Source of the DNA: Candidatus Omnitrophota bacterium
GTDB taxonomy: Bacteria; Omnitrophota; Gorgyraeia; 2-01-FULL-45-10
Reading direction: 5' to 3'
DNA length: 64,000 nucleotides
Assembly: GCA_003142795.1 (NCBI GenBank)
Contig: PLNN01000017.1
Coordinates: forward strand, 512-64,511
The position numbers and the translations under genes are program-made. Positions 8,745-50,091 of this stretch are shown one piece after another; the first letter of the stretch is position 1; each line of letters starts with the position of its first letter. The notes beneath the pieces are model-generated. The model did not search any database. It was not told where the DNA came from and saw only the letters and a list, made by a program, of their open reading frames with translations.

Positions 8745-8746
8745 AA

Positions 8747-9439: not shown

Positions 9440-9445
9440 ATCTAT

Positions 9446-28188: not shown

Positions 28189-29533
28189 GGGCGGAAATTT
28201 CCTTTTTTAAAAACATATGGTTTAGTCCGGCCATAGCGTATATAAATATGATGAAAGAGAAAATATCTCTATGCCTGAATGCTGATCCCATATTGCTCTC
28301 TACCATGGCGAATATCGAGATGCCTATTAAAAAGAACATAATTATAAAAAAGTTATTTTCTTTCGAAATTTTTAATGCTTTCGTAAATCCAACAACAGAA
28401 AGAAATAGCAAAAGATACCAAAGCACTATCTGCGGATACGCCAATATTTGATTAAGGCTGGATAGTCTCCATGGAAATGGCACCAAAATAAAATAGCCTA
28501 TCGCTTTAAAATAAAATATGACCAAGGAACCTAGATCCAGGATACCGGATCTTAATTGAGCAATCGTATGGGAATCGTATGCGAGATACCCGGCGTTGTC
28601 CACTATATACAAACTAATGCTTCTATCAAGCGTAGACTGGAGAAACTTCACTATGGATCCTTTAATATTGTCATGTTCGCACGCCATAAATAGGATTGAT
28701 AAAATAATGACTGCGATCAAAACGACAAGGAACACCGGCTTGTTCTTCGACCTTAGTATCTTAAAAAAATTATATACCGCGAATAACGCTATTATTAGCA
28801 AAAATGCCGCGAACGCGACTATTTGCAGTTTTTTTAAGAGAACCAGTATAAATAATACTGCGATACTTTTCATGATCCGATACCTGTTTTTCCTAAGCGC
28901 CAATAAAAGATAGAATGTCATAACTGTTAAAAAAATTATTATCGGATCCCTGAGATTCCCGATAGACCACCTTACCATCGATGGATAGAAGCTTGCCAAA
29001 GCAAATGACAGCTTAGCCACTTTTGCGGAAAACATATCCTTTGCTATAAGATAAATCACTAATGGCGCCATGCTTCCTATAAGACAATTTATAAGCTTTG
29101 AGCTGAGATAGTTTGGTTCGAATAAGCGAAAGAAGAGCGCCAATATGTATGTAAATGGATTTAACCCATATCCCGGACTATGGGTGTCACAATTCATATT
29201 ATAGGGCAGATGCTGCCATGATAATGCGATCTTGATGGCCTTGAGCGTATAGAGCCTGTCGTCTCCTGAAATGAAACCTTCAAAACCGGCTTTATAAGAT
29301 TGCCAATGCAGTAAATACATAAGCACGATACGCACAAAAAACGAAATGATAAAAACAATTGCTAAAAATTTTGCGTCTTCTTTGCCAAGCATAAAAATCA
29401 CGGATAAAATAATTAAAAATAATGACAATATGAAACTTGTTCCATCTTTAAAGATCAGGCTTGATGCCAGAAAAACGGATATTAGAAAAAATAATATATT
29501 TTTTTCTTTAGCTTCAGGTATCGGTCTTTTCAT
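28172..29533 (-). CDS. polytopic membrane protein, GT-C-like or O-antigen-polymerase-like (Wzy candidate)
   Basis: 453 aa. More than 10 predicted TM helices. FISGDDRLY acidic motif in the first loop. Adjacent to the flippase. Confidence 0.4.
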   Translation of the reverse strand: MKRPIPEAKEKNILFFLISVFLASSLIFKDGTSFILSLFLIILSVIFMLGKEDAKFLAIVFIISFFVRIVLMYLLHWQSYKAGFEGFISGDDRLYTLKAIKIALSWQHLPYNMNCDTHSPGYGLNPFTYILALFFRLFEPNYLSSKLINCLIGSMAPLVIYLIAKDMFSAKVAKLSFALASFYPSMVRWSIGNLRDPIIIFLTVMTFYLLLALRKNRYRIMKSIAVLFILVLLKKLQIVAFAAFLLIIALFAVYNFFKILRSKNKPVFLVVLIAVIILSILFMACEHDNIKGSIVKFLQSTLDRSISLYIVDNAGYLAYDSHTIAQLRSGILDLGSLVIFYFKAIGYFILVPFPWRLSSLNQILAYPQIVLWYLLLFLSVVGFTKALKISKENNFFIIMFFLIGISIFAMVESNMGSAFRHRDIFSFIIFIYAMAGLNHMFLKKEISAHGKGR

Positions 29534-29539
29534 ATTGGG

Positions 29540-31030
29540 CTACCTTGTGTTACCGCCAAACCGGAATTTCTTCAAAATGATATCAAAAAGCCGGGACTTC
29601 TCCGCGCTCGTTGATAAAAAATAGAGCCACGCCGCTAATAACGCTGTCTTTAGACCGACCATAAAAAAGCCGTCTTTACCAAAAAACAGGATAATTACGC
29701 AAAGGCCTGCCGCAGAGACCAATAATTTTACGTTCTGCATAGTGATCTTCAACCCCATCCATCTTATATGATAATAGACCACTGCTGAAAATGACAACAG
29801 ATTAGCGATAAAGTATGCCGTGGTTACGGCCTTAAGGCCTAATATATTGTGAAGAGACAGGAATAATGCGATAAAGCTTATCGAGGAGAATATCCCGAGG
29901 CCCAGATAGGCTCTCAACCTCGCGCTCGCCAGGAGCGACACGCCCATGACATAAAAAAGCAGGAAGAAGACGTCTCCGAACAATTGGGTCGAGAACAGTT
30001 CCCGGGAATATATGAACTTCCCGGAAAATACAAGTTTTATGATCATATCCTTTGCGAAAAATATCACGGCTATCATAGGCACTACTCCGAAAGTGCAAAA
30101 CCGCAGGGTGCTATTAACCTCGAATGAATAATCATTTCTGTCCTGGATAATGCTCAGCTTGGCGTATGAATAAGACCAGAGGCCGTTGGTAAAAAAAGCT
30201 ATATGGTACGCGGACAAAGAAAAAACTACCTGATAGTAACCGCTCGCGTCGGCGCCGTAATATTTTATAAGGAGGGACCTCAGAAGCACGATGCTGCCCA
30301 TGCTTAACACTCCCGTAACGAACATTACGCCGCCATAGGATAAAAGGCCTCTGCCGGACTGCACCAAGTTCTCTTTGCTGAGAGCGGATTTATCCATGAC
30401 AAATACGGAATTAAAAATATCTTTCGGCACATTTTTATAAAATAGATAATAGTATACGAGAAAAGTTATCACCCCGTTCAGCGCAAGATATATGAAGCCG
30501 CCTTTGACGCCCATCGCGGCAATGAAAATAAAAAGCGGTATGAGCGACAAAATGCTCGAAAGGCTGCGGCCTTTCGCGAATGCTTTGTAATTTCCAAAAC
30601 CCAGCAGGGCCGCTTCGATCGCGCCCCCCAGCACAAAGAATAGGACCCCGAACGATAAAATAATAAGCAAATTTTTATATTCACTGCTCGAGAAAAGGAA
30701 TTTGGATAATCTCCCGGCAAAAATAAAAGTTAATATAATAAACGCGACCGAGGCGATGATCTGCATGATGGAAGCGCTCGATATTACACCTTTTATCTTC
30801 AGCTGGTCATTTTGCGCGTTGTGCTGAGCAACATGTTTCGCTATCCCCAGCCCGATATTCAAAGATGCTATGTTAATGGCAAGCTGCTGAAAATTAAAAG
30901 CCTGAGAAAAGATACCCACACCGGCAGGCCCCAACGTTACGGCGGTGAACTTAGCCCTTATCAAGCCCGTGATTATGGTAGCTATCGTCGCTATTGAGAC
31001 TATTGCCGTTGCTTTTAATAATTTAAGCAT
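29540..31030 (-). CDS. wzx: Wzx-type polysaccharide flippase (MOP superfamily)
   Basis: 496 aa. About 12-14 TM helices. The N-terminus is typical of the polysaccharide biosynthesis protein family. Confidence 0.7.
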   Translation of the reverse strand: MLKLLKATAIVSIATIATIITGLIRAKFTAVTLGPAGVGIFSQAFNFQQLAINIASLNIGLGIAKHVAQHNAQNDQLKIKGVISSASIMQIIASVAFIILTFIFAGRLSKFLFSSSEYKNLLIILSFGVLFFVLGGAIEAALLGFGNYKAFAKGRSLSSILSLIPLFIFIAAMGVKGGFIYLALNGVITFLVYYYLFYKNVPKDIFNSVFVMDKSALSKENLVQSGRGLLSYGGVMFVTGVLSMGSIVLLRSLLIKYYGADASGYYQVVFSLSAYHIAFFTNGLWSYSYAKLSIIQDRNDYSFEVNSTLRFCTFGVVPMIAVIFFAKDMIIKLVFSGKFIYSRELFSTQLFGDVFFLLFYVMGVSLLASARLRAYLGLGIFSSISFIALFLSLHNILGLKAVTTAYFIANLLSFSAVVYYHIRWMGLKITMQNVKLLVSAAGLCVIILFFGKDGFFMVGLKTALLAAWLYFLSTSAEKSRLFDIILKKFRFGGNTR

Positions 31031-31034
31031 GGGT

Positions 31035-31460
31035 TTATTTTTTCTTATTTACACGATCGATAAAATCCCGATAATTTCTTATATAGTCGAACTCTTTATA
31101 AAAATCGGACGCTAAAACGAGTATGACGCAATCCGGAGAAAAATTATGCATCGTATGCCAGACATTGCTGCCCATATACACGCCCATGTGGGGCTTTGCC
31201 AGCAGCACCCTTTCCCTTCTAACCCCGTCGTCCAGCTGAAGCTCGAACGAACCGTTAATACAGAACAAGACCTGCTTCAGTCTCTTATGCGCGTGCTTTC
31301 CTCTCACGGCCTTCCTGGACTTCAGATTATTTATGAAATAAACTCTTTTGATCTGGAACGGCACCTGTTTCGCGCTCTCGGCTATCACCAGGTTCCCATC
31401 TATCCCGTCATCAAAGAATTTCAATTTGATGATCCTGCAGTTCCTGACTTTCATATCCAT
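31035..31460 (-). CDS. fdtA: WxcM/FdtA-like cupin, dTDP-4-keto-6-deoxyglucose 3,4-ketoisomerase
   Basis: 141 aa cupin with a HAHK..Q motif; typical size for FdtA. Confidence 0.6.
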   Translation of the reverse strand: MDMKVRNCRIIKLKFFDDGIDGNLVIAESAKQVPFQIKRVYFINNLKSRKAVRGKHAHKRLKQVLFCINGSFELQLDDGVRRERVLLAKPHMGVYMGSNVWHTMHNFSPDCVILVLASDFYKEFDYIRNYRDFIDRVNKKK

Positions 31461-32626
31461 TATCCTTTTAATAGTTCAGCGTATATAGACTCGATCTTTT
31501 CGACTTGCGCGCCGACATCGAACTCTTTTTTGACATATGCGCTTGCGCGGGAGCCGATCTCATCCCAAAGCGCAGGCCTCTCATAAAGATACAGCATCTT
31601 TTCGTATACTGACGAAGGATCCGGATCACAATATACGCCGGTTTTGCCGTCGATTATAGAGCGCTCTGCCCCGGGGAATCGCGTAGCGATAACCGGCAAT
31701 CCTGCAGCCTGAGCCGCTATCAGCGTCAGGGCGGGCCCGCCTTCATCGTCCCCGTTCTTTGCCGCGATGGAAGGCAGCACGAATATATGGCTTTTCGTGA
31801 GATGGTCCTTATAAATAGCAGAAAAGTCCGGAGCTGTATCGGTCGGAACAATGATTACCTTATCCATCAGTCCAAGGTTCTGGCATAATTTTATAACTTC
31901 ATTCCTGCCGTTGCCATACCCTATTATCGTCAACCTGATATCGCCATGTTCTTTTGCCAATCTCGCGAAGGCATTCAATAATAACGGATATCCTTTCTTT
32001 TCCACAAAGCGCGCTGCTATTATAAAGTTAACCGGGCCCGCCGCGGGCCTTTTAGAATAGGTGTAAAATCCCACATCTTCGAGACAATTCCAGATACGCA
32101 CCTTATCCTCTTTGCAGCCGAGCGAGACGAGCCTGTTCTTCACTTCGTCGCAAAGCACTATCATCCTATCGGCAATATCGAACAATTTTTTAAATCGCGG
32201 GATCCATTGATTGCTCTTTAAGCAAAAGCTGCCGTCAACGCCGTATAGAGTAACGACAAGCGGAAGCTTTAATTGTCTTGCCAAATCCATCACACTGCAG
32301 CCTGCCATGCCGAAGTGGGCATGGATAAGGGACGAGCCTTCCTCTCTCAACATTTTTTTGTAAAATGACTCTATCAATTTCCGGTAAATGGGAGTTTCGG
32401 AAATGACGTTATCCAGCTTATGGAATATGTCGCCCTTAGGTACTTTGTAAAAATAACGGGTCCGCGGAAAAAGCTCCCTGGAGTTCGGGACATAACGTTC
32501 CGCCAGAAGGACGGAACCATACCGGCCCTTTTTCAGCAATTCGTTATGAAGGTCTAACAGCACTCCGGGCGAATATCTGCAATAAGTATGGGCTATCGTC
32601 TTCATATTTTTTGAACGATCATGCAT
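31460..32626 (-). CDS. GT4-family glycosyltransferase
   Basis: 388 aa. GT-B fold; conserved EGGPALTLIAAQAAGLPVIAT region. Confidence 0.65.
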   Translation of the reverse strand: MHDRSKNMKTIAHTYCRYSPGVLLDLHNELLKKGRYGSVLLAERYVPNSRELFPRTRYFYKVPKGDIFHKLDNVISETPIYRKLIESFYKKMLREEGSSLIHAHFGMAGCSVMDLARQLKLPLVVTLYGVDGSFCLKSNQWIPRFKKLFDIADRMIVLCDEVKNRLVSLGCKEDKVRIWNCLEDVGFYTYSKRPAAGPVNFIIAARFVEKKGYPLLLNAFARLAKEHGDIRLTIIGYGNGRNEVIKLCQNLGLMDKVIIVPTDTAPDFSAIYKDHLTKSHIFVLPSIAAKNGDDEGGPALTLIAAQAAGLPVIATRFPGAERSIIDGKTGVYCDPDPSSVYEKMLYLYERPALWDEIGSRASAYVKKEFDVGAQVEKIESIYAELLKG

Positions 32627-33540
32627 AGATTGCTGCCAAGATATTTAAAAGGGTACTTCGCGCCTACCCGGCTATTCCAGGCAACGGTCTTTTCATATAC
32701 CTTAAACGGTAATGCCGGGTTGATCAGGCTAAGCAATTGCCAGGGAATGACTATGGTGCTGAATACCTTCTTTATCCTGAAACCGCTGCCGGTGAAGAGC
32801 CCCAGCCATTTCCCGGGCAGATAGCCCGCAAATTCATGCCCTAAAGTCTTATACGCGCCGTGCGGTTCCGGGAACGGAAAGTTCGGATGCAACGTAAGGA
32901 ATTCTTTTACTGACGAGCTGCCTGCCTTGGACGATGCGCCTCCGTCCCGGGCAGCCGGCGCATCAGGCTTCCTGAAAGGCGCTATTAAGAACCGGCCTAT
33001 CGCCCTCGCCAGCATGTCGCGATAATACACCAACGGATAAAATATCCTGTCTAAAAAACTGGGCACGACTATTATGGCCAGGCCTCCTTTTTTCAGGACC
33101 CTGTTCATTTCCTGAGCCGTCTTCTTCCTGTCCGGTATGTGCTCCAGCGTATTCAGCGAAAAGACGACATCAAAGGTGCCATCCTTAAAAGGAAGTTCTT
33201 CTCCCGAGCAGGATAATATGGAACAATTCGTTATATCCAGAGATTCTAGGAGCTTCTTCGAGTCGAGAAGCGCCTGGGTATGAGTCTTAAAATCTTGTTT
33301 AAAAAGGTCTGTTGCGATGATACGTCTGAATTTATATGATAAAAGGCATGAATTAAAACCGTTGCTGCATCCTATTTCAAGCGCCAGGCCCTGACGCGGT
33401 ATATCAAAAACGGAGAGGATCGCCTCCGCCTCCTTCGCGCGTAAACTGAAATAATTCTCCCATGGTTGAAGATCGGACGCTAAGGAAATGGCTTTTTTTC
33501 TTATATCTTCTATCGGTAAATAAGCGTCTTTTTGCGTCAT
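32602..33540 (-). CDS. class I SAM methyltransferase
   Basis: 312 aa. LEIGCSNGFN motif I. Confidence 0.6.
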   Translation of the reverse strand: MTQKDAYLPIEDIRKKAISLASDLQPWENYFSLRAKEAEAILSVFDIPRQGLALEIGCSNGFNSCLLSYKFRRIIATDLFKQDFKTHTQALLDSKKLLESLDITNCSILSCSGEELPFKDGTFDVVFSLNTLEHIPDRKKTAQEMNRVLKKGGLAIIVVPSFLDRIFYPLVYYRDMLARAIGRFLIAPFRKPDAPAARDGGASSKAGSSSVKEFLTLHPNFPFPEPHGAYKTLGHEFAGYLPGKWLGLFTGSGFRIKKVFSTIVIPWQLLSLINPALPFKVYEKTVAWNSRVGAKYPFKYLGSNLCMIVQKI

Positions 33541-33547
33541 AGGGAAT

Positions 33548-34654
33548 TTACTTCCCGTAAAACTCTCTGATCTTTTCTACTATATAGTTCATCTCTTTTT
33601 TATTAAGCTCCGGATATACCGGAATGGCGCATGTTTCAAGAGAGGCCTTTTCGGATTCTGAGAGATCGCCTTTTTTATACTTCAGCGATCTATAACATTC
33701 CTGGAGATGTAATGGAACAGGGTAATACGTTCTTGTCTCGATCCCGCTCTTGATCAAAAAGCTCATAAATGCCTCCAGGTTAGCATTAGGCCTTATGACG
33801 TACTGATGGTAAGTGTGAACATTATAGGACGGGACGTACGGCACGGTTATCGGCAAACCTTTCAGGTGGTCATTGTAAAACCTGGCCTTCTCTCTTCTTG
33901 CTTCAAGCCAGGAATCGATATGTTTGAGCTTGACCCTCAGCACCGCAGCCTGGATATTATCGAGCCTGGAATTTATCCCGATCATTAAGTGCAGATAGCC
34001 TCCCCGGCTTCCGTGAACACGGAGGATCTTCAGTGTTTCGAATAACTGCTTATCGTTTGTAACGACCATGCCGGCATCGCCGTAAGCGCCTAAATTCTTG
34101 CTTGGATAGAAACTTAAGCCACCCAGATCTCCCATCGATCCGGATTTTTTTCCTTTGTAAGCAGCGCCGATCGATTGAGCGCAATCTTCAACTATCTTAA
34201 GGTTGTGCTTCTTGGCAATAGCGATGATCGGGTCCATATCACAGCACTGTCCATAAAGGTGGACAGGTATGATCGCCTTTGTCCGCTTTGTTATCTTGGA
34301 GGCTATGAGCGCCGGGTCTATAGTATAGGTTTTGGGATCTATATCTACAAAAACAGGCGTTGCTCCTACTAAAGAGACGGCCTCCGCGCTTGCAAAAAAA
34401 GTGAACGGCGTGGTGATAACCTCATCTCCGGGCTTTATGCCCAGGGCCATCAATGATACTACTAACGCATCAGTGCCGGAAGCTACGCCGACCGCGTATT
34501 TAGTATTGCAATATTGAGCTATCTCTTCTTCCAATAGCTGCAGTTCTTTGCCAAGAACGAATTCCTGGCTGTCGATTATCTTCTTTATCGCCTTATTAAC
34601 ATCGGACCTGATTACCTTATATTGCCCTTTTAGATCTAAAATATTTACTTTCAT
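33548..34654 (-). CDS. DegT/DnrJ/EryC1 sugar aminotransferase (FdtB-like dTDP-3-keto-6-deoxyhexose transaminase by context)
   Basis: 368 aa. PLP-dependent fold-type I. A lysine is present in the [15 protein letters not shown] region. Lies next to the FdtA-like gene. Confidence 0.65.
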
Positions 34655-35284: not shown

Positions 35285-35314
35285 TTGACGGCTTACAACA
35301 AGAAGTTGTATAAT
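35285..35314 (+). promoter_or_regulatory. sigma70-like promoter for the plus-strand CDP-sugar operon
   Basis: -35 TTGACG (35285-35290), 18-nt spacer, -10 TATAAT (35309-35314). GGAGG RBS at 35335-35339, ATG at 35343. Confidence 0.55.
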
Positions 35315-35342: not shown

Positions 35343-36125
35343 ATGAAAGTAGTGATCCTGTGCGGAGGTTTGGGAACAAGATTGCGCGAGGAAACAGAAT
35401 TCATCCCGAAGCCTATGATGGAGATAGGCGGCAAGCCGATACTCTGGCATATAATGAAGATTTATGCTCATTACGGATACAAAGAATTCATACTGTGCCT
35501 CGGCTATAAAGGTGAGATGATAAAAGATTATTTCTTGAATTACGAGGCCATGAATAACGATTTTACTATCCGGTTGGGGAGCCCCAGTAAAATAAATTTC
35601 AACAGCAACCACGCCGAAGACGGCTGGAAAGTAACGTTGGCGAATACCGGCGAGAAGGCCATGACGGGCTCAAGGATAAAGCAGGTAGAAAAATATATTA
35701 CCGAAGACGAATTTATGGTAACCTACGGTGACGGCCTTGCCGATATCGACCTGACCCGGCTTTTAAAACTTCATCGAAAACAAAAAAAGATCGGCACTCT
35801 CACCGGGGTACGGCCTCTTTCCCGTTTTGGAGAGGTGATCGAGGATCGCGGGATCGTAAAAGATTTTATCGAGAAACCCCAGGCATCTGAGGGTTATATC
35901 AATGGCGGTTTTTTTGTCTTTAACAGAAAATTTTTCGATTATCTGTCAAAAGAACATGATTGCGTATTGGAAAGGCAGCCCCTGGAGCAATTAACCGGAG
36001 AGAGGCAGCTATCCATATATCCCCACAAAGATTTTTGGCAGTGCATGGATACCTACCGCGATTACAGATATCTAAAAGATATGTGGGAAGCCGGCAACGC
36101 CCCTTGGAAAATTTGGAAAAGATAA
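35343..36125 (+). CDS. rfbF: glucose-1-phosphate cytidylyltransferase
   Basis: 260 aa. MKVVILCGGLGTRLREETEFIPKPM matches RfbF/DdhA very closely. Confidence 0.85.
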   Translation: MKVVILCGGLGTRLREETEFIPKPMMEIGGKPILWHIMKIYAHYGYKEFILCLGYKGEMIKDYFLNYEAMNNDFTIRLGSPSKINFNSNHAEDGWKVTLANTGEKAMTGSRIKQVEKYITEDEFMVTYGDGLADIDLTRLLKLHRKQKKIGTLTGVRPLSRFGEVIEDRGIVKDFIEKPQASEGYINGGFFVFNRKFFDYLSKEHDCVLERQPLEQLTGERQLSIYPHKDFWQCMDTYRDYRYLKDMWEAGNAPWKIWKR

Positions 36126-37105
36126 ATTATAAAAAATTCTGGGCAAATAAAACAGTCCTGGTAACCGGCCACGAAGGTTTCCTTGGCTCCTGCTTGTCAA
36201 AAACCCTCATAGATAGCGGTGCCAGGGTAATAGGCCTGGACAAGGTAAATAACAGGCCCGGCTCCATATTGAACAAAGACCTTAGAAAAAATATCGTGTG
36301 CATCCGCGGAAACGTCGCCAACCTTAAACTGATCAAAAAGCTATTCGATAAATACACGCCCGATATCGTCTTTCATCTGGCAGCCGAAGCCATAGTCAGC
36401 CGCGCGAATAATAAGCCCATCAGGACTTTTAAATCGAATATACAGGGCACGTGGAATATCCTGGAGGGCGCCAGAAATAAGAAATTTATCGGGGCTATTA
36501 TAGTGGCGTCGAGCGATAAAGCTTACGGCTCCCATGACGATCTTCCCTACCGCGAAGATTCCACCCCTCTCAAAGGGAGCCACCCTTATGACGTTTCTAA
36601 AAGTTGCGCGGATCTGATATGCCACACGTATCATAACACTTTTAATGTCCCGGTATGCGTTACCCGTTGCGGGAATATATACGGGCCGGGCGATCATAAT
36701 TTTTCAAGGCTGGTCCCCGACGCAATAAGGTCTGCTCTAAAAAATAGATCTCTCTCCATCCGAAGCGACGGTAAATTCACGCGGGATTACATATATGTAG
36801 GGGATGTCGTATCCGGATACCTGGCGTTAGCGGCAAAGATGAATAATAAGAAGGTGCACGGCGAGGCTTTTAATTTCAGCAACGAAAAGCCCGTTTCAGT
36901 GCTGGAAATAGTAAAACTGATATATAAGCTGTCCGGGAAACAGCCAAACTATAAGATATTAAACCTGGCAAAGCATGAAATAAAAGACCAATATCTTTCG
37001 GCAAAAAAAGCCAGGCGCTCTCTAGGATGGAAGCCTCTCTACGCGCTTGAAGAAGGATTGAAAGAAACGATCGATTATTATAAAAAGCGCTTTTTAAATA
37101 AATGA
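36113..37105 (+). CDS. rfbG: CDP-glucose 4,6-dehydratase
   Basis: (L)EKINYKKFWANKTVLVTGHEGFLGS matches the RfbG/DdhB N-terminus. Probable TTG start overlapping the rfbF stop; the tracked ORF's long N-terminal extension is probably not translated. Confidence 0.75.
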   Translation: MEKINYKKFWANKTVLVTGHEGFLGSCLSKTLIDSGARVIGLDKVNNRPGSILNKDLRKNIVCIRGNVANLKLIKKLFDKYTPDIVFHLAAEAIVSRANNKPIRTFKSNIQGTWNILEGARNKKFIGAIIVASSDKAYGSHDDLPYREDSTPLKGSHPYDVSKSCADLICHTYHNTFNVPVCVTRCGNIYGPGDHNFSRLVPDAIRSALKNRSLSIRSDGKFTRDYIYVGDVVSGYLALAAKMNNKKVHGEAFNFSNEKPVSVLEIVKLIYKLSGKQPNYKILNLAKHEIKDQYLSAKKARRSLGWKPLYALEEGLKETIDYYKKRFLNK

Positions 37106-38076
37106 AATCCTCTAATAAAAAGATCCTGGTCACCGGAGCAACGGGATTTGTAGGGGCGAATATCGCGCGGCATTTCGTCTCGCGCGGAGCCGACGTCGCC
37201 ATTTTTACAAGACATGGCTCCGATAAATGGCGAATAAACGATATTTTAAAGAAGATATCGGATTATCCTGTGGACTTGCTGGATGAGCGCTCGGTGCAAA
37301 AAACTGTGGCGCATATCAAGCCGGCAATAATATTGCATGCCGCCACTTACGGCGGTTATCAGCACCAGAAAGATACGAGAAAAATATTCGATGTAAATTT
37401 CACGGGGACCGTTAACCTGCTTAAGGCCTGCAAAGAAACCGGGTTCGAACTTTTTGTTCACACCGGATCTTCTTCCGAATACGGATTAAAGACAAAACCC
37501 ATTAAAGAGGATAGCTCACTCAAACCCGTTACCGATTACGGCGTCTCCAAGGCCGCCGCAAGTCTATATTGCCAGTCGTGCGCCTTAAGGGATCGCCTGC
37601 CGATCGCAATTCTAAGGTTGTTCTCGCCATACGGGTATTTTGACGATGCATCCCGTCTCATCCCGTATCTGATCGGGGAATGCCTGGCCGACAGAGGCCC
37701 CCGGCTTTCATCTCCTTTCGCGGTGAGAGATTTTATTTTTATAGATGACGTGCTGAATGCATATGTCAAGGTGATCGAGAATAAAAATATTTCCGCCGGC
37801 CATATATTCAACATAGGGTACGGCAAACAAAATCCGGTCGGATACGTGGCCGGGGAAGTGGCGCGGCTGACAGGAAGTCCGGAGGCATCCGTCCGCGCCG
37901 GTAAAATAAATCCAAGGCTGGAACCGGCAATGTGGCAGGCGGATATAGACAAAGCGCGAAAAATGCTCGGCTGGAGGCCGAAAACCGGCATTTCGAAAGG
38001 CTTGCAGAAAACTATCGAATGGTTCAAAACAAACAAAAAACTGTATAAAAACAGGATGACGCAAGATGTCTGTTAA
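37102..38076 (+). CDS. NAD(P)-dependent SDR reductase/epimerase (YerF- or CDP-paratose-synthase-like)
   Basis: 324 aa. ILVTGATGFVGANI Rossmann motif. Catalytic YxxxK in SSSEYG..YGVSK. Confidence 0.6.
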   Translation: MKSSNKKILVTGATGFVGANIARHFVSRGADVAIFTRHGSDKWRINDILKKISDYPVDLLDERSVQKTVAHIKPAIILHAATYGGYQHQKDTRKIFDVNFTGTVNLLKACKETGFELFVHTGSSSEYGLKTKPIKEDSSLKPVTDYGVSKAAASLYCQSCALRDRLPIAILRLFSPYGYFDDASRLIPYLIGECLADRGPRLSSPFAVRDFIFIDDVLNAYVKVIENKNISAGHIFNIGYGKQNPVGYVAGEVARLTGSPEASVRAGKINPRLEPAMWQADIDKARKMLGWRPKTGISKGLQKTIEWFKTNKKLYKNRMTQDVC

Positions 38077-39847
38077 ACTTTCGGACTATGTAATAGATTT
38101 TCTACGGAAAGAAGGGATCGGCTGCGTTTTCGAGGTTTGCGGCGGTTCGATAACCCATCTCCTGGATTCTCTATACGGCAGAAAAGATATACGCGCGATC
38201 TCGATGCATCATGAGCAGGCAGCTGCGTTCGCGGCTGAAGGATATGCCAGGGCAGGCGAAAACTTCGGAGTAGCGATGGCGACGAGCGGGCCCGGAGCGA
38301 CTAATCTCATAACCGGCATAGGAAGCGCATTTTTTGATTCTATCCCCTGCCTATTCCTGACGGGCCAGGTAAATACTTATGAGTTTAAATTTGACCGGCC
38401 GGTAAGACAGGTTGGCTTCCAGGAAACAGATATAGTAAATATCGTAAAACCGATCGTCAAGGAAGCGCATCTCGTGACAGAACCCGACAAGATACGCTAC
38501 TTTTTAGAAAGATCCGTGCATGTTGCAAGATCGGGGCGTCCCGGCCCTGTCCTCCTGGATATACCGATGAATATACAGCGGGCCATGATCAACCCAAAGA
38601 AATTAAAACCGTTCAGTCCGAAACCCGGCCCTGTCCTTTCTTTAGATAAAACGTCTATCCAAAAAATAGTGAAAGCCGTATCTTCTTCTGAGCGCCCGGT
38701 AATACTCGTTGGCGGAGGCATTCGCCTGGCAAAGGCCGAAGGAGAGCTGTTAAAATTCCTGGAACAGACCGGGATGCCTGTCGTATGTTCTCTGATGGGG
38801 CTTGACGCATGCCCGCATGAGCATCCTTCTTTTGTCGGAATGATAGGCACCTATGGTAACCGCTACGCAAATCTGACGGTTGCCAACGCCGATATGATAC
38901 TGGCTTTAGGCACGCGGTTCGATACCAGACAAACCGGGACCAGGCCATACACTTTCGCAAGAGGGGCCAGGATCATTCATGTTGACATAGACCCCCACGA
39001 GATCGGGAACAAAGTAAAGCCTTACGCGTCGGTCTGCGCCGATATAAAAAGTTTCCTGGATATTTTGAATAAAGATATCAAGCACTATGATAGATCCGGA
39101 ATATCGGATTGGAAAAAAACAATACGGCTGTATAAAACAAAATATCCGATGCCTGTAAGATCTTCCAAAAAACATATCGATCCTAACGTGCTGCTGAGCC
39201 GTCTCTCCGATCTTTTACCCGAAGATGCGATCATATGCGTCGACGTCGGACAGCATCAGATGTGGTCGGGCCAATCGTTAAAGATCAAAAGGCATCAACG
39301 CTTTATAACCGAGGGCGGAATGGCTTCGATGGGTTCGTCCCTCTCCATGGCCATAGGCGCGTCGTTCGCAAAACCGGAAAAAGACGTCATAGTCATAAGC
39401 GGGGACGGCGGATTCCAGGTCAACATACAGGAGCTCCAGACGATACGCCATCATAACCTGCCCATAAAAATAGTATTGTTAAATAATAACGGTTATGGCA
39501 TGATAAGGCAATTCCAAAAACAATATTTTGGCGGGCGTTTTCAGTCAACGGTTATCGGTTATAGTCAGCCAAACTTCGGGTCCGTTGTCGCATCGTATAA
39601 ATTGCCTGTCATAAAAGTATCGCGATATAACGAACTGGATAAGGCATTTAAGCGGTTTCTAAGAGAGCGCGGACCTATCTTTTTAGAGATAAAGATCGGA
39701 GAAGACGGTCTCGTTCTTCCGAAACTTTCCGTAAATCGCCCCGTAGAGGATCAGGACCCTCTCCTGCCTCTGGATGAGCTGAAGTCGAACATGCTTGTAG
39801 ATCTATTACCGGAAACGATCGATGACAAAATCAGAAAAAAAACTTAG
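38066..39847 (+). CDS. thiamine-diphosphate-dependent acetolactate-synthase-like enzyme (YerE-like two-carbon branch-forming enzyme)
   Basis: 593 aa. Three-domain ALS-like layout. GDGGF plus NNNGYGMI ThDP-binding motif. Confidence 0.65.
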   Translation: MSVKLSDYVIDFLRKEGIGCVFEVCGGSITHLLDSLYGRKDIRAISMHHEQAAAFAAEGYARAGENFGVAMATSGPGATNLITGIGSAFFDSIPCLFLTGQVNTYEFKFDRPVRQVGFQETDIVNIVKPIVKEAHLVTEPDKIRYFLERSVHVARSGRPGPVLLDIPMNIQRAMINPKKLKPFSPKPGPVLSLDKTSIQKIVKAVSSSERPVILVGGGIRLAKAEGELLKFLEQTGMPVVCSLMGLDACPHEHPSFVGMIGTYGNRYANLTVANADMILALGTRFDTRQTGTRPYTFARGARIIHVDIDPHEIGNKVKPYASVCADIKSFLDILNKDIKHYDRSGISDWKKTIRLYKTKYPMPVRSSKKHIDPNVLLSRLSDLLPEDAIICVDVGQHQMWSGQSLKIKRHQRFITEGGMASMGSSLSMAIGASFAKPEKDVIVISGDGGFQVNIQELQTIRHHNLPIKIVLLNNNGYGMIRQFQKQYFGGRFQSTVIGYSQPNFGSVVASYKLPVIKVSRYNELDKAFKRFLRERGPIFLEIKIGEDGLVLPKLSVNRPVEDQDPLLPLDELKSNMLVDLLPETIDDKIRKKT

Positions 39848-41150
39848 AGAAGAGATATTTAAAAAAATAGTCCGGTTTTACAAAGCCTGTCATGCGCCGA
39901 AAGAATTCATCCCCGGCACGACACCGGTAAAGTACGGAGGAAGGGTCTTTGACGAAAAAGAGCTCGTCAACTTGATCGACGCATCTCTCGATTTCTGGCT
40001 GACATCCGGCCGTTATGCCGCTTCTTTCGAGAAAAAACTGGCCGAATATTTATCTATAAAATATTGCATGCTTACGAATTCCGGCTCCTCCGCAAATCTT
40101 CTCGCCGTTACAGCCCTCACCTCTCCGCAGCTGGGCAAGAGGCGCTTAAAAGCCGGCGATGAGGTCATCACTACTGCCTGCGGCTTCCCGACCACGCTAA
40201 ACCCGATAATACAGAACAACCTTACACCCGTTTTTGTCGATGTTGAATTGGGCACCTATAATATCCGGGCGGATATTATAGAAAAAGCGGTCTCCAAAAA
40301 AACCAAAGCTATTTTTATACCGCATACTCTCGGCAACCCTGCCGCTATCGATCCCATTATAAAGATCGCCAGGAAATATAACTTATGGTTCGTAGAGGAC
40401 AATTGCGATTCGCTTGGATCCGTCTACAGGAATGCCTATACCGGCACCTTCGGAGACATCGCTACATGCAGCTTTTATCCTCCCCATCATATTACGATGG
40501 GCGAAGGCGGCGCGGTATTGACCGATTCTCCCCTGCTAAAAAAGATAATCCTTTCTTTGCGCGACTGGGGCAGGGATTGCTGGTGCGAATCCGGCCACGA
40601 TGATACCTGTCACAAAAGGTTTTCATGGAAATCAGGAAAGCTGCCGAGGGGATACGACCATAAGTATATATATTCCCACGTAGGATATAACCTGAGAGTG
40701 ACGGACATGCAGGCGGCAATAGGGCTTGCGCAATTGGACAAATTAGCGGCATTCACAACTGCGCGGAAGAAAAATTTTCAATACTTATACGATATATTCA
40801 AAAAATACGAGCGGTATATAGTCCTCCCCCGGCATGAAGCGCATGCCGAGCCAAGCTGGTTCGGCTTTCCTATTTTCGTAAAAAATTCCGCCCAGTTCAC
40901 GAGGGACGATATGGTCCGCTATCTCGAGTCTAAACGTATTACGACGAGAATGCTTTTCGGCGGCAATCTGACAAAACAGCCTGCTTATATGGACGCGCGA
41001 TACCGGATAGCGGGAGCGTTAACAAATACGGACGAAGTTATGAACAGGCTGTTCTGGATCGGCGTTTATCCCGGCCTTACCCCGCACATGTTACATTATG
41101 TCGAAGATACTATAAATAATTTTTTTAAGCACGCAATGCGTGCAAGGTGA
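39822..41150 (+). CDS. ddhC: CDP-6-deoxy-D-xylo-4-hexulose 3-dehydrase (E1/DdhC-like, PMP- and Fe-S-dependent)
   Basis: 442 aa DegT-like. SFYPPHHITMGEGG has His at the conserved PLP-lysine position. EDNC-X57-CWC-X7-C cysteine spacing. Confidence 0.7.
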   Translation: MTKSEKKLREEIFKKIVRFYKACHAPKEFIPGTTPVKYGGRVFDEKELVNLIDASLDFWLTSGRYAASFEKKLAEYLSIKYCMLTNSGSSANLLAVTALTSPQLGKRRLKAGDEVITTACGFPTTLNPIIQNNLTPVFVDVELGTYNIRADIIEKAVSKKTKAIFIPHTLGNPAAIDPIIKIARKYNLWFVEDNCDSLGSVYRNAYTGTFGDIATCSFYPPHHITMGEGGAVLTDSPLLKKIILSLRDWGRDCWCESGHDDTCHKRFSWKSGKLPRGYDHKYIYSHVGYNLRVTDMQAAIGLAQLDKLAAFTTARKKNFQYLYDIFKKYERYIVLPRHEAHAEPSWFGFPIFVKNSAQFTRDDMVRYLESKRITTRMLFGGNLTKQPAYMDARYRIAGALTNTDEVMNRLFWIGVYPGLTPHMLHYVEDTINNFFKHAMRAR

Positions 41151-41847
41151 CATCTTGAAACTGAGCATTATAATCACTTGCTTCAATGAAAAAAACACTA
41201 TATTAAAATCTATCGATGAGGCAAAAAAAGTATCGGTCGAAAAAGAGATAATAGTGATCGATAACGCTTCGACGGACGGGTCCCGGGAGCTCTTAAGCGA
41301 TCTGAAAGACAGCGGCATCAAAATAGTCTTCCAACCCAAAAACTTCGGATACGGTCAATCGGTTAAAACGGGAGCGGAGCTGTCGCGGGGAGATTTCATC
41401 TACGTTCATTATTCGGATCTTGAATATGACATAGAATGTGTTTACAGGATGCTGGCGATCGCGGAAAAAGACTCTCTCGATGTTGTATTCGGCTCGCGCC
41501 TTTATGAAAACAAAAAGAGCCCTATCGCGCTGATCAAAGAGAGGCCTTACTATGCGGGGACCATAGCTACAACCTTCATGATAAATCTGTTCTACGGAAA
41601 GCATTTTACGGATATCATAGGGACCCGCCTATACAAGGCGTCAAGTTTTAAAAAACTGGATATCGAATCAACGGGAATGAGCTTTGATTTTGAAGTAGTA
41701 AGCCTGGTATGCAAGAAGGGACTTAAAATGTGCGAAGTCCCTGTCAAGTATAAGCCAAGGTCCACGAGAGAAGGCAAAAAGATCAAGGCCATGGACATCA
41801 TACCGGCGATCCTTACCATATTAAAGTTAAAATTTTTACCTAAATAA
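41140..41847 (+). CDS. GT2-family polyprenyl-phosphate glycosyltransferase (ArnC/GtrB/DPM1-like)
   Basis: 235 aa. LSIIITCFNEK..IVIDNASTDGS. DxD-containing GT-A fold. Confidence 0.65.
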   Translation: MQGDILKLSIIITCFNEKNTILKSIDEAKKVSVEKEIIVIDNASTDGSRELLSDLKDSGIKIVFQPKNFGYGQSVKTGAELSRGDFIYVHYSDLEYDIECVYRMLAIAEKDSLDVVFGSRLYENKKSPIALIKERPYYAGTIATTFMINLFYGKHFTDIIGTRLYKASSFKKLDIESTGMSFDFEVVSLVCKKGLKMCEVPVKYKPRSTREGKKIKAMDIIPAILTILKLKFLPK

Positions 41848-41853
41848 TACGAA

Positions 41854-43179
41854 ATGATCAAAAATCCAAGACGAGTACTGCTTATTATCTTCATTATCTC
41901 GATAGCGCTGGCTTCCTTTTTTGCTGCGTTCTCCCGCCCCGTTGTTCAGGATGATGACCCCGGCCAATACGACACGATCGGATGGAATATAGCTCAAGGT
42001 AATGGCTTTTCTCTCGCACGCTCCGGACCTTTTACGCCGACCATGCTGCGCGAACCTCTATATCCATATTTTCTTGGGGTAATATACAAAATATTCGGGC
42101 ACGATTATCGCATTGCAATAGCGTTCCAGATCGTTCTATTCGCCCTTACATGCCTGCTCGTTTACATGATATCGAAAGAAATATTCGGTGATAAAATAGC
42201 GGCGTATTCCGCGCTCCTGACCGCCCTCTGTCCTACTTTGGCGAATTATACAAGTTACATATTGACGGAAACGACCTTCACCTTTCTTCTGTGCCTATTC
42301 ATCTTCGTCCTGATAAAAGCAATGAGATCGGGAAAGATGGCTTTATTCATAGCATCCGGAGCGATGCTGGGGTTTTGCGCCTTATGCAAAGCCGTAATGC
42401 TGCCGTTCTTTGCCGTTGCCGCCGTGACAATTCTTTTAAAACGCAAGGCGGCGCATGCGAGCTTATTCGTCCTGACATTTTTGCTGATAGTCTCGCCTTG
42501 GCCTTACCGGAATTACACCCTATTCAAGACCTGCCAGATGAGCCTGCGCGGCGGCGCAGTCCTGTGGGAGCGCGCGCAAAAGTCGGATGACACCATAGAG
42601 GATATGAAGCATGCTATTGCATTTAATTTTTCGGAATATCTGGGCAACAAGATGTTCCCGGGGCTTGTCGAAAATCCGAGAGATTTCATACTACAGGGTT
42701 CAAAAAAATCTCACGAAAAAGAGTATGAGTTGTCCGCGCGCGGCCTGACGCCGGTTAAGATCGATAAATTAATGGCAGCAGAGGCAAAAGAAAAAATAAT
42801 GGGCCATCCGATGAAATTCCTGTTTTACATACCGATAGAATTTATAAAAATGACATCCTTTATTTATGTGCCGGTACTGAATGAACCGGATGTGATAAAT
42901 AAATTTTATGGCCTAAAAAATGGGAAGGCGATGCTTTCTTTCCTGAGAAGCGTCTTTCGCCTAAGCGCTTATCCCATCCTTATACTGGCTTTTATGGGGA
43001 TTTTATTTGCAAGGCGGTCGTGGAAGGATTGGATATTAATGGCGGCTATTATGATCTATATAAATCTTATTTACAGCATGTTATTTGCCATGGGGAGATA
43101 CGCGGTTCCGTTAATACCTTTTTATTTAATTTTTGCCACAGTAGGATTCTTTGGATTATTTACGAGACACTCGGCATGA
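41854..43179 (+). CDS. GT-C membrane glycosyltransferase (ArnT/PMT-like, GT83/GT39 family)
   Basis: 441 aa polytopic. VVQDDDPGQYD acidic loop motif after TM1 is typical of ArnT/PMT. Confidence 0.6.
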   Translation: MIKNPRRVLLIIFIISIALASFFAAFSRPVVQDDDPGQYDTIGWNIAQGNGFSLARSGPFTPTMLREPLYPYFLGVIYKIFGHDYRIAIAFQIVLFALTCLLVYMISKEIFGDKIAAYSALLTALCPTLANYTSYILTETTFTFLLCLFIFVLIKAMRSGKMALFIASGAMLGFCALCKAVMLPFFAVAAVTILLKRKAAHASLFVLTFLLIVSPWPYRNYTLFKTCQMSLRGGAVLWERAQKSDDTIEDMKHAIAFNFSEYLGNKMFPGLVENPRDFILQGSKKSHEKEYELSARGLTPVKIDKLMAAEAKEKIMGHPMKFLFYIPIEFIKMTSFIYVPVLNEPDVINKFYGLKNGKAMLSFLRSVFRLSAYPILILAFMGILFARRSWKDWILMAAIMIYINLIYSMLFAMGRYAVPLIPFYLIFATVGFFGLFTRHSA

Positions 43180-46196: not shown

Positions 46197-47521
46197 TACA
46201 GCCTCACTATGTTCGATCTTTTGGTTATGCCTTTCAGCACGTTCCTGGTGTCAACCACCAGGTCGGAATTATCCGCGATAAATTTATAATCTACGTTGGT
46301 ATGGTCGGTGACGATCACTACGCAGTCGGAATCTTTAAACGAATCTTTATTGAACGGAACGCCTTTCAGATTTATATCGTGTATCTTTAGATACGGCAGG
46401 TATGGGTCGTAATAAGAAACGATCGCGCCTTTTTCCATCAGGAGATCTATTACCTCCAATGACGGGGATTCGCGCAGATCCTTTACGTCTTTTTTGTACG
46501 CAACTCCGACCACCAGCACCTTCGAACATCTTAGCGGCTTGCGCTGATCGTTCAGCCCCTCGATAACTTTATCAACGACGTAATGCGGCATCTCTGAATT
46601 GACCTGCGACGCAAGATCTATGAACCGTGCCTCAAAACCGTGCATGCGCGCCTTCCATGAAAGGTATATGGGATCCACGGGAATGCAATGGCCGCCGACG
46701 CCCGGGCCCGGATAGAACGGCATGAACCCATACGGCTTGGTCTTGGCCGCGTCTATCACTTCCCAGACGTCTATGCCGAGCCTGTCGCACATGAGCATCA
46801 GCTCGTTGACCATGGCTATATTGACTATGCGGAACGTGTTCTCCAGGAGCTTTACCATCTCTGCAACCTTGCTCGATGAGACGGGGATAACCGTATCGAT
46901 GGCCTGCTCGTATAACGTTTTAGCGATATCCGTGGAATTCCGGGAAATGCCGCCGATGATCTTAGGGGTATTTTTAGTAGCATACTTCTCGTTGCCCGGG
47001 TCTATTCTTTCGGGGGAGAAGGCGAGATAAAAATCCTTCCCTTCTTTCAAGCCGTCCGATTCAAGTATAGGCAGCATCACTTCTTCGGTCGTGCCGGGAT
47101 AGGTAGTCGACTCAAGAACTATTATCTGGCCCCGCTTCATGTATTTCTTTATGTTATTCACGGCCGAGACTATGTATGAGACATCCGGTTCTTTTGTCTT
47201 ATATAACGGCGTCGGCACGCAGATGATAACGGCGTCACATTCTTTTATACGCCCGAAGTCGGCGGTAACGGCAAATCTTTTTTTAGCCATCGCATCTTTT
47301 ATATCCGCGGACGATACATCCAGGATATAAGATTTATGGCTATTGAGCCTCTTTATCCTGTCTTTGTCAATGTCGATGCCGTAAACCCTGAATCCCTTTT
47401 TCGCAAAACTAAGCGCCAGCGGCAAGCCGACATAGCCCAGCCCTATTATCCCTATCCGCGCTTTTATGTTCAATATCTTCTCTTTCAATAATTTCAACAT
47501 GTTCCTCTCCTTATTGATCAC
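46196..47521 (-). CDS. UDP-N-acetylhexosamine 6-dehydrogenase (WbpA/TviB-like nucleotide-sugar dehydrogenase)
   Basis: 441 aa. IGIIGLGYVGLPLA Rossmann motif. Catalytic Cys region GPGVGGHCIPVDP. Confidence 0.7.
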   Translation of the reverse strand: MINKERNMLKLLKEKILNIKARIGIIGLGYVGLPLALSFAKKGFRVYGIDIDKDRIKRLNSHKSYILDVSSADIKDAMAKKRFAVTADFGRIKECDAVIICVPTPLYKTKEPDVSYIVSAVNNIKKYMKRGQIIVLESTTYPGTTEEVMLPILESDGLKEGKDFYLAFSPERIDPGNEKYATKNTPKIIGGISRNSTDIAKTLYEQAIDTVIPVSSSKVAEMVKLLENTFRIVNIAMVNELMLMCDRLGIDVWEVIDAAKTKPYGFMPFYPGPGVGGHCIPVDPIYLSWKARMHGFEARFIDLASQVNSEMPHYVVDKVIEGLNDQRKPLRCSKVLVVGVAYKKDVKDLRESPSLEVIDLLMEKGAIVSYYDPYLPYLKIHDINLKGVPFNKDSFKDSDCVVIVTDHTNVDYKFIADNSDLVVDTRNVLKGITKRSNIVRL

Positions 47522-49354: not shown

Positions 49355-50091
49355 TTGCATCCTGACCTTTGTTCCATTTTTGCTACAAGATTGTTCGCCC
49401 GCAATAACGAATCGAACGTCCCCGAATCGGTCCACCATCCGTTGAGTATGCTGTATGTAAGCTCGCCCCTTTTAAGATACGCATTATTTACATCCGTTAT
49501 CTCGAGCTCGCCCCTTCCGGACGGCCTCAATGTCTTTATTATATCGAATACCTGGTTGTCATACATATATATGCCGGTCACGGCATAATTGGATCTCGGC
49601 TTTCTTGGTTTTTCCACGATCGATATGATCTTTTTATCTTTCAATTCCGCGACGCCGAACCTCTCCGGATCTTCCACTTCTTTCAATAGTATCCGCGCGC
49701 CTCTCGGCTGGTCCCTGAATTCATCCACGGATTTTTTTATGCTCTTTTCGATTATATTGTCGCCGAGGATAACAACGATCTTATCCTTATCGACAAAATG
49801 CCTGGCAAGCTTCAACGCATCCGCTATGCCGCCCTCGCCTTCCTGATACGTATAATTTATGTGTTTGAGCCCGAACTGCGCGCCGTTACCGAGAAGCCTT
49901 AAGAATTCTCCGGCATGCATACCGCCCGTTACGATAAGTATGTCCTGTATGCCTGCGTCCACCAGTGTCTGTATGGGATAATAGATCATCGGCTTGCAAT
50001 AGATCGGCAATAAGTGCTTGTTCGTTATTTTAGTCAACGGATAAAGCCTTTTGCCCAAGCCGCCCGCCAGTATAACGCCCTTCAGTCCCAT
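49351..50091 (-). CDS. rmlA: glucose-1-phosphate thymidylyltransferase (short form)
   Basis: 246 aa. GVILAGGLGKRLYPLT nucleotidyltransferase motif. Confidence 0.7.
   Translation of the reverse strand: MGLKGVILAGGLGKRLYPLTKITNKHLLPIYCKPMIYYPIQTLVDAGIQDILIVTGGMHAGEFLRLLGNGAQFGLKHINYTYQEGEGGIADALKLARHFVDKDKIVVILGDNIIEKSIKKSVDEFRDQPRGARILLKEVEDPERFGVAELKDKKIISIVEKPRKPRSNYAVTGIYMYDNQVFDIIKTLRPSGRGELEITDVNNAYLKRGELTYSILNGWWTDSGTFDSLLRANNLVAKMEQRSGCK

Follow-up and report, generated by a model that had tools for sequence, protein, structure and literature searches.

A predicted operon for a yersiniose-type branched 3,6-dideoxyhexose in an uncultivated Omnitrophota bacterium

We examined 64,000 nucleotides (nt) of contig PLNN01000017.1 (assembly GCA_003142795.1, positions 512 to 64,511 of the forward strand) from an uncultivated Omnitrophota bacterium; this whole stretch is referred to here as the window. 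Its AccD agrees with that origin, as the named relatives of this protein at 83 to 87% identity are all labeled Candidatus Omnitrophota. On its plus strand, at 35343-43179, lies a seven-gene operon that probably makes and deploys a yersiniose-type, C4 acyl-branched 3,6-dideoxyhexose, as judged from profile matches, tree placement, and gene neighborhoods. Its five-gene core (35343-41150) encodes, in this order, a glucose-1-phosphate cytidylyltransferase, a CDP-glucose 4,6-dehydratase, a short-chain dehydrogenase/reductase (SDR), a thiamine diphosphate (ThDP)-dependent enzyme resembling the carboligase YerE, and a 3-dehydrase of the E1 type. The core is followed by genes for a family 2 glycosyltransferase (GT2) and a membrane glycosyltransferase of the GT-C type.

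A first-pass annotation had read the core as a CDP-3,6-dideoxyhexose operon with a YerE-like ThDP enzyme. The list of open reading frames (ORFs) and the profile matches confirm the five genes and their order, and the YerE-like reading is supported by tree placement, by shared motifs, and by a conserved cassette of SDR, ThDP enzyme, and E1. That annotation had also ended the operon at 41150, which holds for the core but not for the operon, and had likened the genes to a ddhA-ddhB-yerF-yerE-ddhC logic of yersiniose A biosynthesis. Here the chemistry agrees, but the gene order differs from the ddhDABC-yerEF arrangement of the known clusters.

The ThDP enzyme groups with YerE-like carboligases

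The ThDP enzyme matches PF02776, PF00205, and PF02775, i.e., all three thiamine pyrophosphate domains, and in alignment it has HHEQ and the cofactor motif GDGGFQ...LLNNN. The family models that fit it best describe large subunits of acetohydroxyacid synthase (AHAS), its relatives are publicly annotated as "acetolactate synthase," and in a contig scan with AHAS-universal peptide patterns, the listed matches were almost only IlvB genes at 35 to 39% identity. Its best solved relative is 5ahk (384 bits), followed by plant AHAS (371 bits). The 5ahk structure was deposited under the name "acetolactate synthase II" and is that of PpYerE of Pseudomonas protegens (PMC12247030 and general knowledge).

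A neighbor-joining tree was computed from members of the window enzyme's family, two more distant ThDP enzymes linked to RfbH (L002 from Peregrinibacteria and L003 from Solirubrobacteraceae), PpYerE, and YerE orthologues of Yersinia and Pseudomonas, with 22 IlvB-type proteins and Arabidopsis AHAS on the AHAS side. YerE-like and IlvB/AHAS sequences were split in all 100 bootstrap replicates, with the window enzyme on the YerE-like side. Within that side, the subfamily of the window enzyme and the classical YerE enzymes form separate clades, each again with 100/100 support. Subfamily members are 62 to 70% identical to the window enzyme, and the YerE enzymes of Yersinia and Pseudomonas are 37 to 39% identical to it (38% for Yersinia).

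All YerE-like sequences have in common a six-residue insertion, QVN(T/R)xExKxxRxxRQxGFQE. They also share HHEQ where AHAS has RHEQ, and they carry Phe in place of the Trp that sets AHAS specificity (RQFQ versus RQWQ). The middle, FAD-type domain of the window enzyme keeps the AHAS-type GGG and DID motifs. No ilvN/ilvH, ilvC, or ilvD gene was found among the annotated genes of the window. On sequence grounds, then, the enzyme groups with the YerE carboligases and not with IlvB, and it is not a YerE orthologue; the alignment with YerE that had been proposed upholds the clade but not orthology, given the 37 to 39% identity and the separate subfamily.

The subfamily is tight. The 120 closest public relatives of the enzyme are all 62 to 69% identical to it, and clustering at 50% identity puts the family in essentially one cluster. 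Scalindua and Omnitrophica names occur among the relatives. At 37 to 49% identity, relatives were observed (P0376, P0389, P0396, P0419, P0453, P0464, P0480, P0484, and P0506) in which the ThDP enzyme is joined to a GNAT, SASA esterase, radical SAM/SPASM, HAD phosphatase, LCM-type methyltransferase, or cupin domain; three have N-terminal extensions of ~200 to 260 amino acids (aa) with no Pfam match. There was no reductase or aldolase among these fused domains.

The five-gene core is conserved across metagenomic loci

Metagenomes were scanned with the family-specific motif QVNTYEFKF, which matched 115 stretches. The synteny set consists of 104 distinct loci in which the ThDP enzyme shares 55% identity or more with that of the window, and each gene was counted in those loci where flanking DNA sufficed. 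RfbH (the E1 gene) lies directly downstream of the ThDP gene in 53 of 55 loci and upstream of it in the other two, and an SDR gene of the window type lies directly upstream in 58 of 69. RfbG, the dehydratase gene, is present in 50 of 56 loci and RfbF, the cytidylyltransferase gene, in 42 of 45. The complete order RfbF-RfbG-SDR-ThDP-RfbH was found in six Pfam-annotated loci from different samples. Recurrence of the five-gene order in dozens of independent loci places the arrangement far from chance, and the synteny counts mark the five-gene core as the unit and delivery by GT2 and GT-C as a lineage-specific add-on.

Some loci show further variation. The RfbF genes of L082 (5285-6064) and L137 are 95% identical to that of the window, whereas the rest of the cassette is 56 to 69% (L082) or 78 to 85% (L137) identical. 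Such uneven identity indicates a mosaic, as expected for recombining surface-glycan loci. Eight related loci have a gene for a 247- to 249-aa protein of the metallo-beta-lactamase fold between RfbG and the SDR gene (L086, 4892-5635; L190, 5048-5797; L182, 4363-5106; also L115, L120, L130, L167, and L174), which is absent from the window. In addition, L144 encodes a 915-aa RfbH fusion (7756-10503), and L182 encodes a 585-aa GNAT-DegT fusion in the SDR position (2599-4356). Just upstream of the cassette, L083 (78-2037) has a pair of genes with E1_dh and Transket_pyr/Transketolase_C domains, along with a gene for an aldo-keto reductase. The pair is of the alpha-KADH2 type, the other ThDP system known to branch sugars (PMC12247030), and L083 may encode two sugar-branching systems.

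A predicted route from glucose-1-phosphate to the envelope

For reference, we used the YerE loci of Yersinia aleksiciae (L204) and of a genome of the Pseudomonas protegens group (L205). Both read ddhD-ddhA-ddhB-ddhC-yerE-yerF, in agreement with the published yersiniose gene set (PMC4509608), and in both, ddhD encodes an E3 with Fer2, FAD_binding_6, and NAD_binding_1 domains. The pathway proposed for the window follows the logic established in the literature (PMC9306805, PMC12247030, PMC4509608). Its first three steps rest on orthology, and steps four to six are predicted from clade membership, synteny, and analogy.

The cytidylyltransferase would first form CDP-D-glucose. It scores 332.7 bits against TIGR02623 (cutoff, 300), its top solved structure is 1tzf (258 bits), and it is 47% identical to DdhA of Yersinia aleksiciae. 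The dehydratase would then yield CDP-4-keto-6-deoxy-D-glucose. Its longest ORF begins at 35960, but a TTG codon at 36104 is the likelier start, matching homologues and the public gene call. The top solved structures for this protein, 1wvg and 1rkx, are both CDP-glucose 4,6-dehydratases, and its motifs are SSDKAYG, which includes an Asp-Lys pair, and YDVSK. An Asp-Lys pair is typical of CDP-specific 4,6-dehydratases, where dTDP-glucose dehydratases have Asp-Glu.

In the third step, E1 would take off the 3-hydroxyl group to give CDP-4-keto-3,6-dideoxyglucose, drawing two electrons via a reductase encoded outside the operon. This protein scores 709.8 bits against NF011936 (cutoff, 423) and 555 bits against PDB entry 3bcx, and it is ~60% identical to the Yersinia pseudotuberculosis enzyme and 51% identical to DdhC of Yersinia aleksiciae. 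Alignment to 3bcx and 3bb8 indicates that it keeps the catalytic His220, which replaces the Lys of aminotransferases, and the [2Fe-2S] ligands Cys193, Cys251, Cys253, and Cys261 (C-X57-C-X1-C-X7-C), a motif described in PMC8987622.

The ThDP enzyme would next decarboxylate a 2-keto acid and couple the resulting acyl anion equivalent to the ketone at C4, which would become a tertiary alcohol. The adjacent, NADPH-type SDR would then reduce the carbonyl group of the branch, the task of YerF in Yersinia. In the last step, GT2 would move the finished sugar from CDP onto polyprenyl phosphate, and, after flipping, GT-C would attach it to an envelope glycan or lipid at the outer face of the membrane.

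This delivery step is suggested by the pairing of the two transferases. GT2 matches PF00535 with 99.7 bits and has no transmembrane (TM) segment. Its best NCBIfam matches are AglJ (7e-21), PpgS (4.5e-17), a dolichyl-phosphate hexose transferase (9e-11), and ArnC (1e-9), and it shares 25% identity (E = 9e-10) with the GT2 encoded at the Yersinia yerEF locus, which is GtrB/ArnC-like. GT-C scores 59.2 bits against PF13231 (cutoff, 26.1) and has ~8 hydrophobic segments, with an acidic loop, DDDPGQYD, right after the first; L082 has a GT-C homologue in the same position. Sequence searches of the PDB with GT2 and GT-C returned no match, and a literature search on Omnitrophota glycans found nothing relevant. 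GT-C enzymes take donors linked to lipid phosphate, and the pair is therefore most likely a lipid-carrier module of the ArnC/ArnT or Gtr type, as far as homology can tell. In Yersinia aleksiciae (L204, 11632-15264), yerEF are followed by gtrA, the GtrB/ArnC-like GT2 gene, and a gene for a 747-aa DUF7024 membrane protein, and the sugar of that species would likewise travel by a Gtr-like, lipid-carrier route. Homologues of the DUF7024 protein were also observed in L124 and L143, and GtrB-like genes in many family loci.

Several results weigh against this pathway. The dehydratase scores 225.8 bits against TIGR02622, below the cutoff of 278.45. The score of the ThDP enzyme against the AHAS model TIGR00118 (514.6 bits), while below the equivalog cutoff, is near it (538.35), and the enzyme is about as similar overall to AHAS (~37%) as to characterized YerE (~38%); its donor and acceptor are inferred from sequence. 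The SDR had been identified with YerF, but alignment does not bear out orthology: a BLASTP comparison with YerF of Yersinia aleksiciae gave E = 3.5 and nothing at E ≤ 1e-3. Moreover, the closest solved relatives of the SDR are NAD-dependent 4- and 2-epimerases (~85 to 96 bits), which makes a different role, e.g., epimerization, possible. No E3 is encoded nearby, and the 3-deoxygenation step thus depends on a reductase from elsewhere. As for delivery, every match of GT2 to a polyprenyl-phosphate transferase model is below cutoff, and the annotated ORFs of the operon, covered systematically from 100 aa upward, include no GtrA_DPMS_TM or flippase-like small membrane protein. A short GT2 follows the core in only 9 of 35 loci and a GT-C in 2 of 24, namely, the window and L082, an Omnitrophota relative with a 156-kb contig that encodes an AccD 81% identical to that of the window. 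This rarity ties the delivery route to the lineage and not to the cassette as such.

Donor and branch length

Pyruvate is the likeliest donor for the ThDP enzyme since no aldolase gene lies nearby. There is, however, a modest chance that the same pathway makes a branch of more than two carbons, as in sugars of the erwiniose, caryophyllose, or gastriose type, in which case the donor would be a functionalized C4-C8 2-keto acid. Donor range varies widely among YerE-like enzymes, and ErwE rejects pyruvate altogether (PMC9306805). The subfamily of the window enzyme is also separate from the pyruvate-using YerE enzymes. One family locus (L148, 7819-14168) encodes, in this order, RfbH, a 242-aa FNR-like protein (NAD_binding_1), the family ThDP enzyme, a ketopantoate hydroxymethyltransferase resembling PanB, and another ThDP enzyme (37% identity); its PanB-like gene, for an enzyme that forms a 2-keto acid, hints at a different donor there. 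We nevertheless consider a long branch unlikely in the window, as characterized long-branch clusters have an aldolase gene beside the ThDP gene (PMC9306805) and neither the 64-kb window nor the annotated related loci yielded an aldolase-type domain.

The adjacent SDR as a predicted branch reductase

The SDR matches PF01370 with 164 bits. It has the catalytic motif YGVSK, with which its family aligns, and lacks the acid pair of dehydratases. After strand beta-2, Arg37 is present in 67 of 69 family members and Ser in 65 of 69. By the cofactor rule for SDR enzymes, these residues would fit an NADPH-consuming reductase better than an epimerase that retains NAD+. The first-pass annotation had raised a CDP-paratose or abequose synthase as a counter-reading; in the profile search, the SDR had no family match at the equivalog level, although it was not directly compared with such synthases.

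Two family loci, L099 and L145, have a ThDP enzyme of the same subfamily and lack the window-type SDR. Both have instead a gene of the YerF type (3690-4601 and 3904-4821, respectively) that is 36 to 41% identical to YerF of Yersinia and Pseudomonas and lies directly 3' of the ThDP gene in L099 and 3' of RfbH in L145. This complementary occurrence is the best evidence that the two proteins do the same job. By gene content, L099 and L145 are cases of non-orthologous displacement of the reductase, and the SDR can at most be called a functional analogue of YerF, not its orthologue.

It is rather improbable that the SDR is a sugar epimerase (e.g., one like CDP-tyvelose 2-epimerase), with the branch staying keto (acetyl) or being reduced by an enzyme encoded elsewhere. 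The solved 4- and 2-epimerases closest to it would agree with such a role, as would the ~16% of loci with no adjacent SDR, but the residues after beta-2, Arg and Ser, agree with NADP(H) serving as a co-substrate and not with NAD+ held tightly in place, and it is a reductase of the YerF type that stands in the place of the SDR in two loci.

An E1 with its iron-sulfur cluster and no linked E3

Across 61 E1 sequences of the family, His220 is kept in 61, Cys193 in 59, and Cys251, Cys253, and Cys261 in all 61, whereas the nonligand Cys257 varies freely. This contrast indicates that the iron-sulfur cluster is under selection and hence that an electron donor is needed. An E3-independent mechanism like that of ColD was considered unlikely, since the four cluster cysteines are conserved.

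The statement that the window has no E3 (DdhD) proved correct: the scanned window ORFs of 150 aa or more include no protein with a Fer2, FAD_binding_6, or NAD_binding_1 domain, and tblastn with E3 queries from L204 and L205 matched neither the window nor ~1 Mb of family loci. A regular-expression screen of the family loci for the plant-type ferredoxin motif was also negative; such a screen is blind to FNR-only reductases, and the search was repeated with the FNR-like protein of L148 and with E3 of Yersinia and Pseudomonas, again without a match. Among the family loci, a linked reductase thus occurs in L148 alone; its FNR-like protein has no counterpart in the others. SpnQ, an E1 homologue without a dedicated E3, is served by housekeeping reductases (PMC8987622). 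By analogy with SpnQ, the simplest explanation is that a housekeeping ferredoxin/flavodoxin reductase system feeds E1.

A far less probable source of electrons would be the ThDP flavoenzyme itself, with a path from pyruvate to hydroxyethyl-ThDP, FAD, and the [2Fe-2S] cluster of E1. If this were true, one ThDP enzyme would drive both C-3 deoxygenation and C-4 branching and replace a dedicated E3. In its stronger form, equally improbable, the enzyme is mainly or additionally the missing E3, the SDR is a 4-ketoreductase, and the product is an unbranched 3,6-dideoxyhexose. AHAS-family enzymes can reduce their own FAD from hydroxyethyl-ThDP as a side reaction, which counts for this idea, as do the retained GGG and DID motifs of the FAD-type domain and the lack of relationship between the SDR and YerF. 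E3 is unlinked in the window and in ~1 Mb of family loci (with the one FNR-like exception), yet the E1 ligands are strictly kept, and the ThDP gene abuts or overlaps the E1 gene in 53 of 55 loci. The enzyme clusters with proven carboligases, however, and in Yersinia and Pseudomonas YerE coexists with a dedicated E3. The replacement of the SDR by a YerF-type protein in two family loci points to branch reduction, and no result supports electron transfer directly; for SpnQ, housekeeping reductases are enough (PMC8987622).

That the 593-aa protein is a genuine biosynthetic IlvB placed by chance in a glycan locus is effectively refuted, its best model matches (TIGR00118) and the "acetolactate synthase" labels of its relatives notwithstanding, by the sub-cutoff score, the position outside the AHAS clade in 100 of 100 bootstraps, the change of the specificity Trp to Phe, the overlap of its gene with the SDR and E1 genes, the RfbH linkage in 53 of 55 loci, and the lack in the window of the small-subunit and branched-chain amino acid genes that the first-pass annotation had named as marks of an IlvB.

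Operon layout and the surrounding glycan locus

The seven genes are closely packed (Table 1). Each core gene overlaps the next by 4 to 26 nt, the start of the GT2 gene overlaps the stop of the E1 gene, and the GT-C gene begins 6 nt after GT2 and ends facing a convergent gene. A GGAGG ribosome-binding site lies directly 5' of the first ATG of the operon, downstream of a sigma-70-like promoter.

Table 1. Predicted promoter and genes of the operon in the window
Feature	Position	Strand	Basis
Sigma-70-like promoter	35285-35314	+	TTGACG, 18-nt spacer, TATAAT; 11/12 consensus positions
Glucose-1-phosphate cytidylyltransferase (RfbF/DdhA orthologue)	35343-36125	+	TIGR02623, 1tzf
Divergent CDP-glucose 4,6-dehydratase (RfbG/DdhB-like), 333 aa, TTG start	36104-37105	+	1wvg/1rkx, motifs
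Extended SDR, 324 aa, predicted branch-carbonyl reductase	37102-38076	+	PF01370, YGVSK
YerE-like ThDP carboligase, 593 aa, probably FAD-binding	38066-39847	+	Three thiamine pyrophosphate domains, 5ahk, tree
E1, pyridoxamine phosphate (PMP)/[2Fe-2S] CDP-6-deoxy-L-threo-D-glycero-4-hexulose 3-dehydrase (RfbH/DdhC orthologue)	39822-41150	+	NF011936, 3bcx
Short soluble GT2, 235 aa, predicted polyprenyl-phosphate glycosyltransferase	41140-41847	+	PF00535
GT-C membrane glycosyltransferase (PMT_2), 441 aa	41854-43179	+	PF13231

Beyond the operon, the window consists of a single, very large glycan locus, with NeuB-like, radical-SAM, and RmlABD genes, UDP-sugar dehydrogenase genes, several DegT aminotransferase genes, a flippase gene, and a second GT-C gene. 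On the minus strand, the region 1-27000 encodes two NeuB-like synthases (10297-11352 and 22700-23584), three CTP_transf_3 cytidylyltransferases (1067-1819, 7026-7748, and 21135-21890), several radical-SAM/SPASM and B12-radical-SAM proteins, ATP-grasp and metallophosphoesterase proteins, and many methyltransferases; it looks like one or two elaborate pathways of the nonulosonic acid type. The second PMT_2 GT-C gene (28172-29533, minus strand), whose product has ~12 hydrophobic segments, lies beside a Wzx-type flippase gene (29540-31030) and GT1/GT4 genes. At 31035-34654 and 47511-50091, both on the minus strand, are genes for an FdtA-type 3,4-ketoisomerase, a methyltransferase, and a DegT aminotransferase, with RmlA-, RmlB-, and RmlD-like genes further on, which suggests a dTDP-3-amino-3,6-dideoxyhexose branch within the locus. 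ORFs of 731, 596, 404, 164, and 254 aa at 51991-54186, 14620-17608, and 23631-24987 (minus strand) have no Pfam match, and two GGDEF diguanylate cyclase genes are neighbors at 54232-57044.

Implications

To our knowledge, few cultured bacteria are known to make acyl-branched 3,6-dideoxyhexoses. The conserved cassette suggests that such sugars are common on the envelopes of uncultivated lineages. It also bears on annotation, in that many genes labeled "acetolactate synthase" in glycan loci would not be IlvB, and on biocatalysis, as it adds a distinct and highly conserved subfamily to the YerE-like carboligases sought for chiral tertiary alcohols. In evolutionary terms, a reductase of the YerF type appears to have been replaced by an unrelated SDR, and the cassette raises a testable question, namely, where an E1 that retains its iron-sulfur cluster gets its electrons once its partner E3 is gone.

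Comparison with known systems

The closest parallel is the yersiniose A pathway, which likewise runs from CDP-glucose through 4,6-dehydration, 3-deoxygenation by E1, and C4 branching by a ThDP enzyme and has an adjacent Rossmann-fold reductase gene. DdhA (47%) and DdhC (51%) are clear orthologues of the window proteins, and the ThDP enzymes fall in the same clade. The window differs in its order (A-B-SDR-ThDP-C), in having no DdhD/E3, in its ThDP subfamily (YerE, ~38%), in a dehydratase only 30% identical to DdhB of Yersinia, in a reductase with no BLAST homology to YerF, and in its host, an uncultivated Omnitrophota bacterium.

With the YerE-like lyases PpYerE, ErwE, MMAR_2332, MyGE, and JanthE, the window enzyme shares the three-domain fold of the decarboxylase superfamily, the clade, the insertion, the motifs, and the genomic linkage to deoxy-keto-sugar genes (PMC12247030). 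It differs from them in its distinct subfamily (62 to 70% identity within it and 37 to 39% to characterized enzymes), in a C-terminal extension, and in the lack of an adjacent aldolase gene. The large subunit of AHAS (IlvB/IlvG/IlvI) has in common with it the fold, the GDG..NN motif, the catalytic Glu, the FAD-type middle domain, and ~37% identity; in contrast, the window enzyme has neither a regulatory subunit nor an ilv context, lacks the AHAS Trp, has the six-residue insertion, scores below the model cutoff, and falls outside the AHAS clade.

As for E1, the window protein keeps His220 and the cluster motif of the AscC/AscD (E1/E3) system, but 103 of the 104 window-family loci have no E3, in contrast to E1 loci of the classical kind. 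In this respect it is like SpnQ, which has no dedicated reductase gene nearby (PMC8987622); the predicted substrate of the window E1 differs, being a CDP-hexose of an envelope-glycan pathway. The delivery genes resemble ArnC/ArnT, the GtrB, GtrA, and serotype-specific Gtr set, and PpgS/Rv3779 in that a GT2 with resemblance to polyprenyl-phosphate sugar synthases precedes a multi-TM GT-C whose first loop is acidic. The GT2 of the window differs in being short, without a TM anchor, and below model cutoffs; no flippase gene was seen in the operon, and the donor would be a CDP-sugar and not a UDP-sugar.

The pathway had been described as rarely reported outside Yersinia, which is out of date. YerE-like lyases have been characterized from Yersinia, Pseudomonas, Pectobacterium, Mycobacterium, and Janthinobacterium, with more than 200 predicted in silico (PMC12247030, PMC9306805), and characterized or predicted enzymes also include those of Rhodopseudomonas and Spirochaeta (PMC12247030, PMC9306805, PMC4509608). 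They are a recognized subclass, and the operon is a widespread variant of a known pathway. What sets this variant apart is a separate and tight ThDP subfamily, a non-orthologous reductase, its gene order, the systematic absence of E3, and a lineage-specific coupling to GT2 and GT-C.

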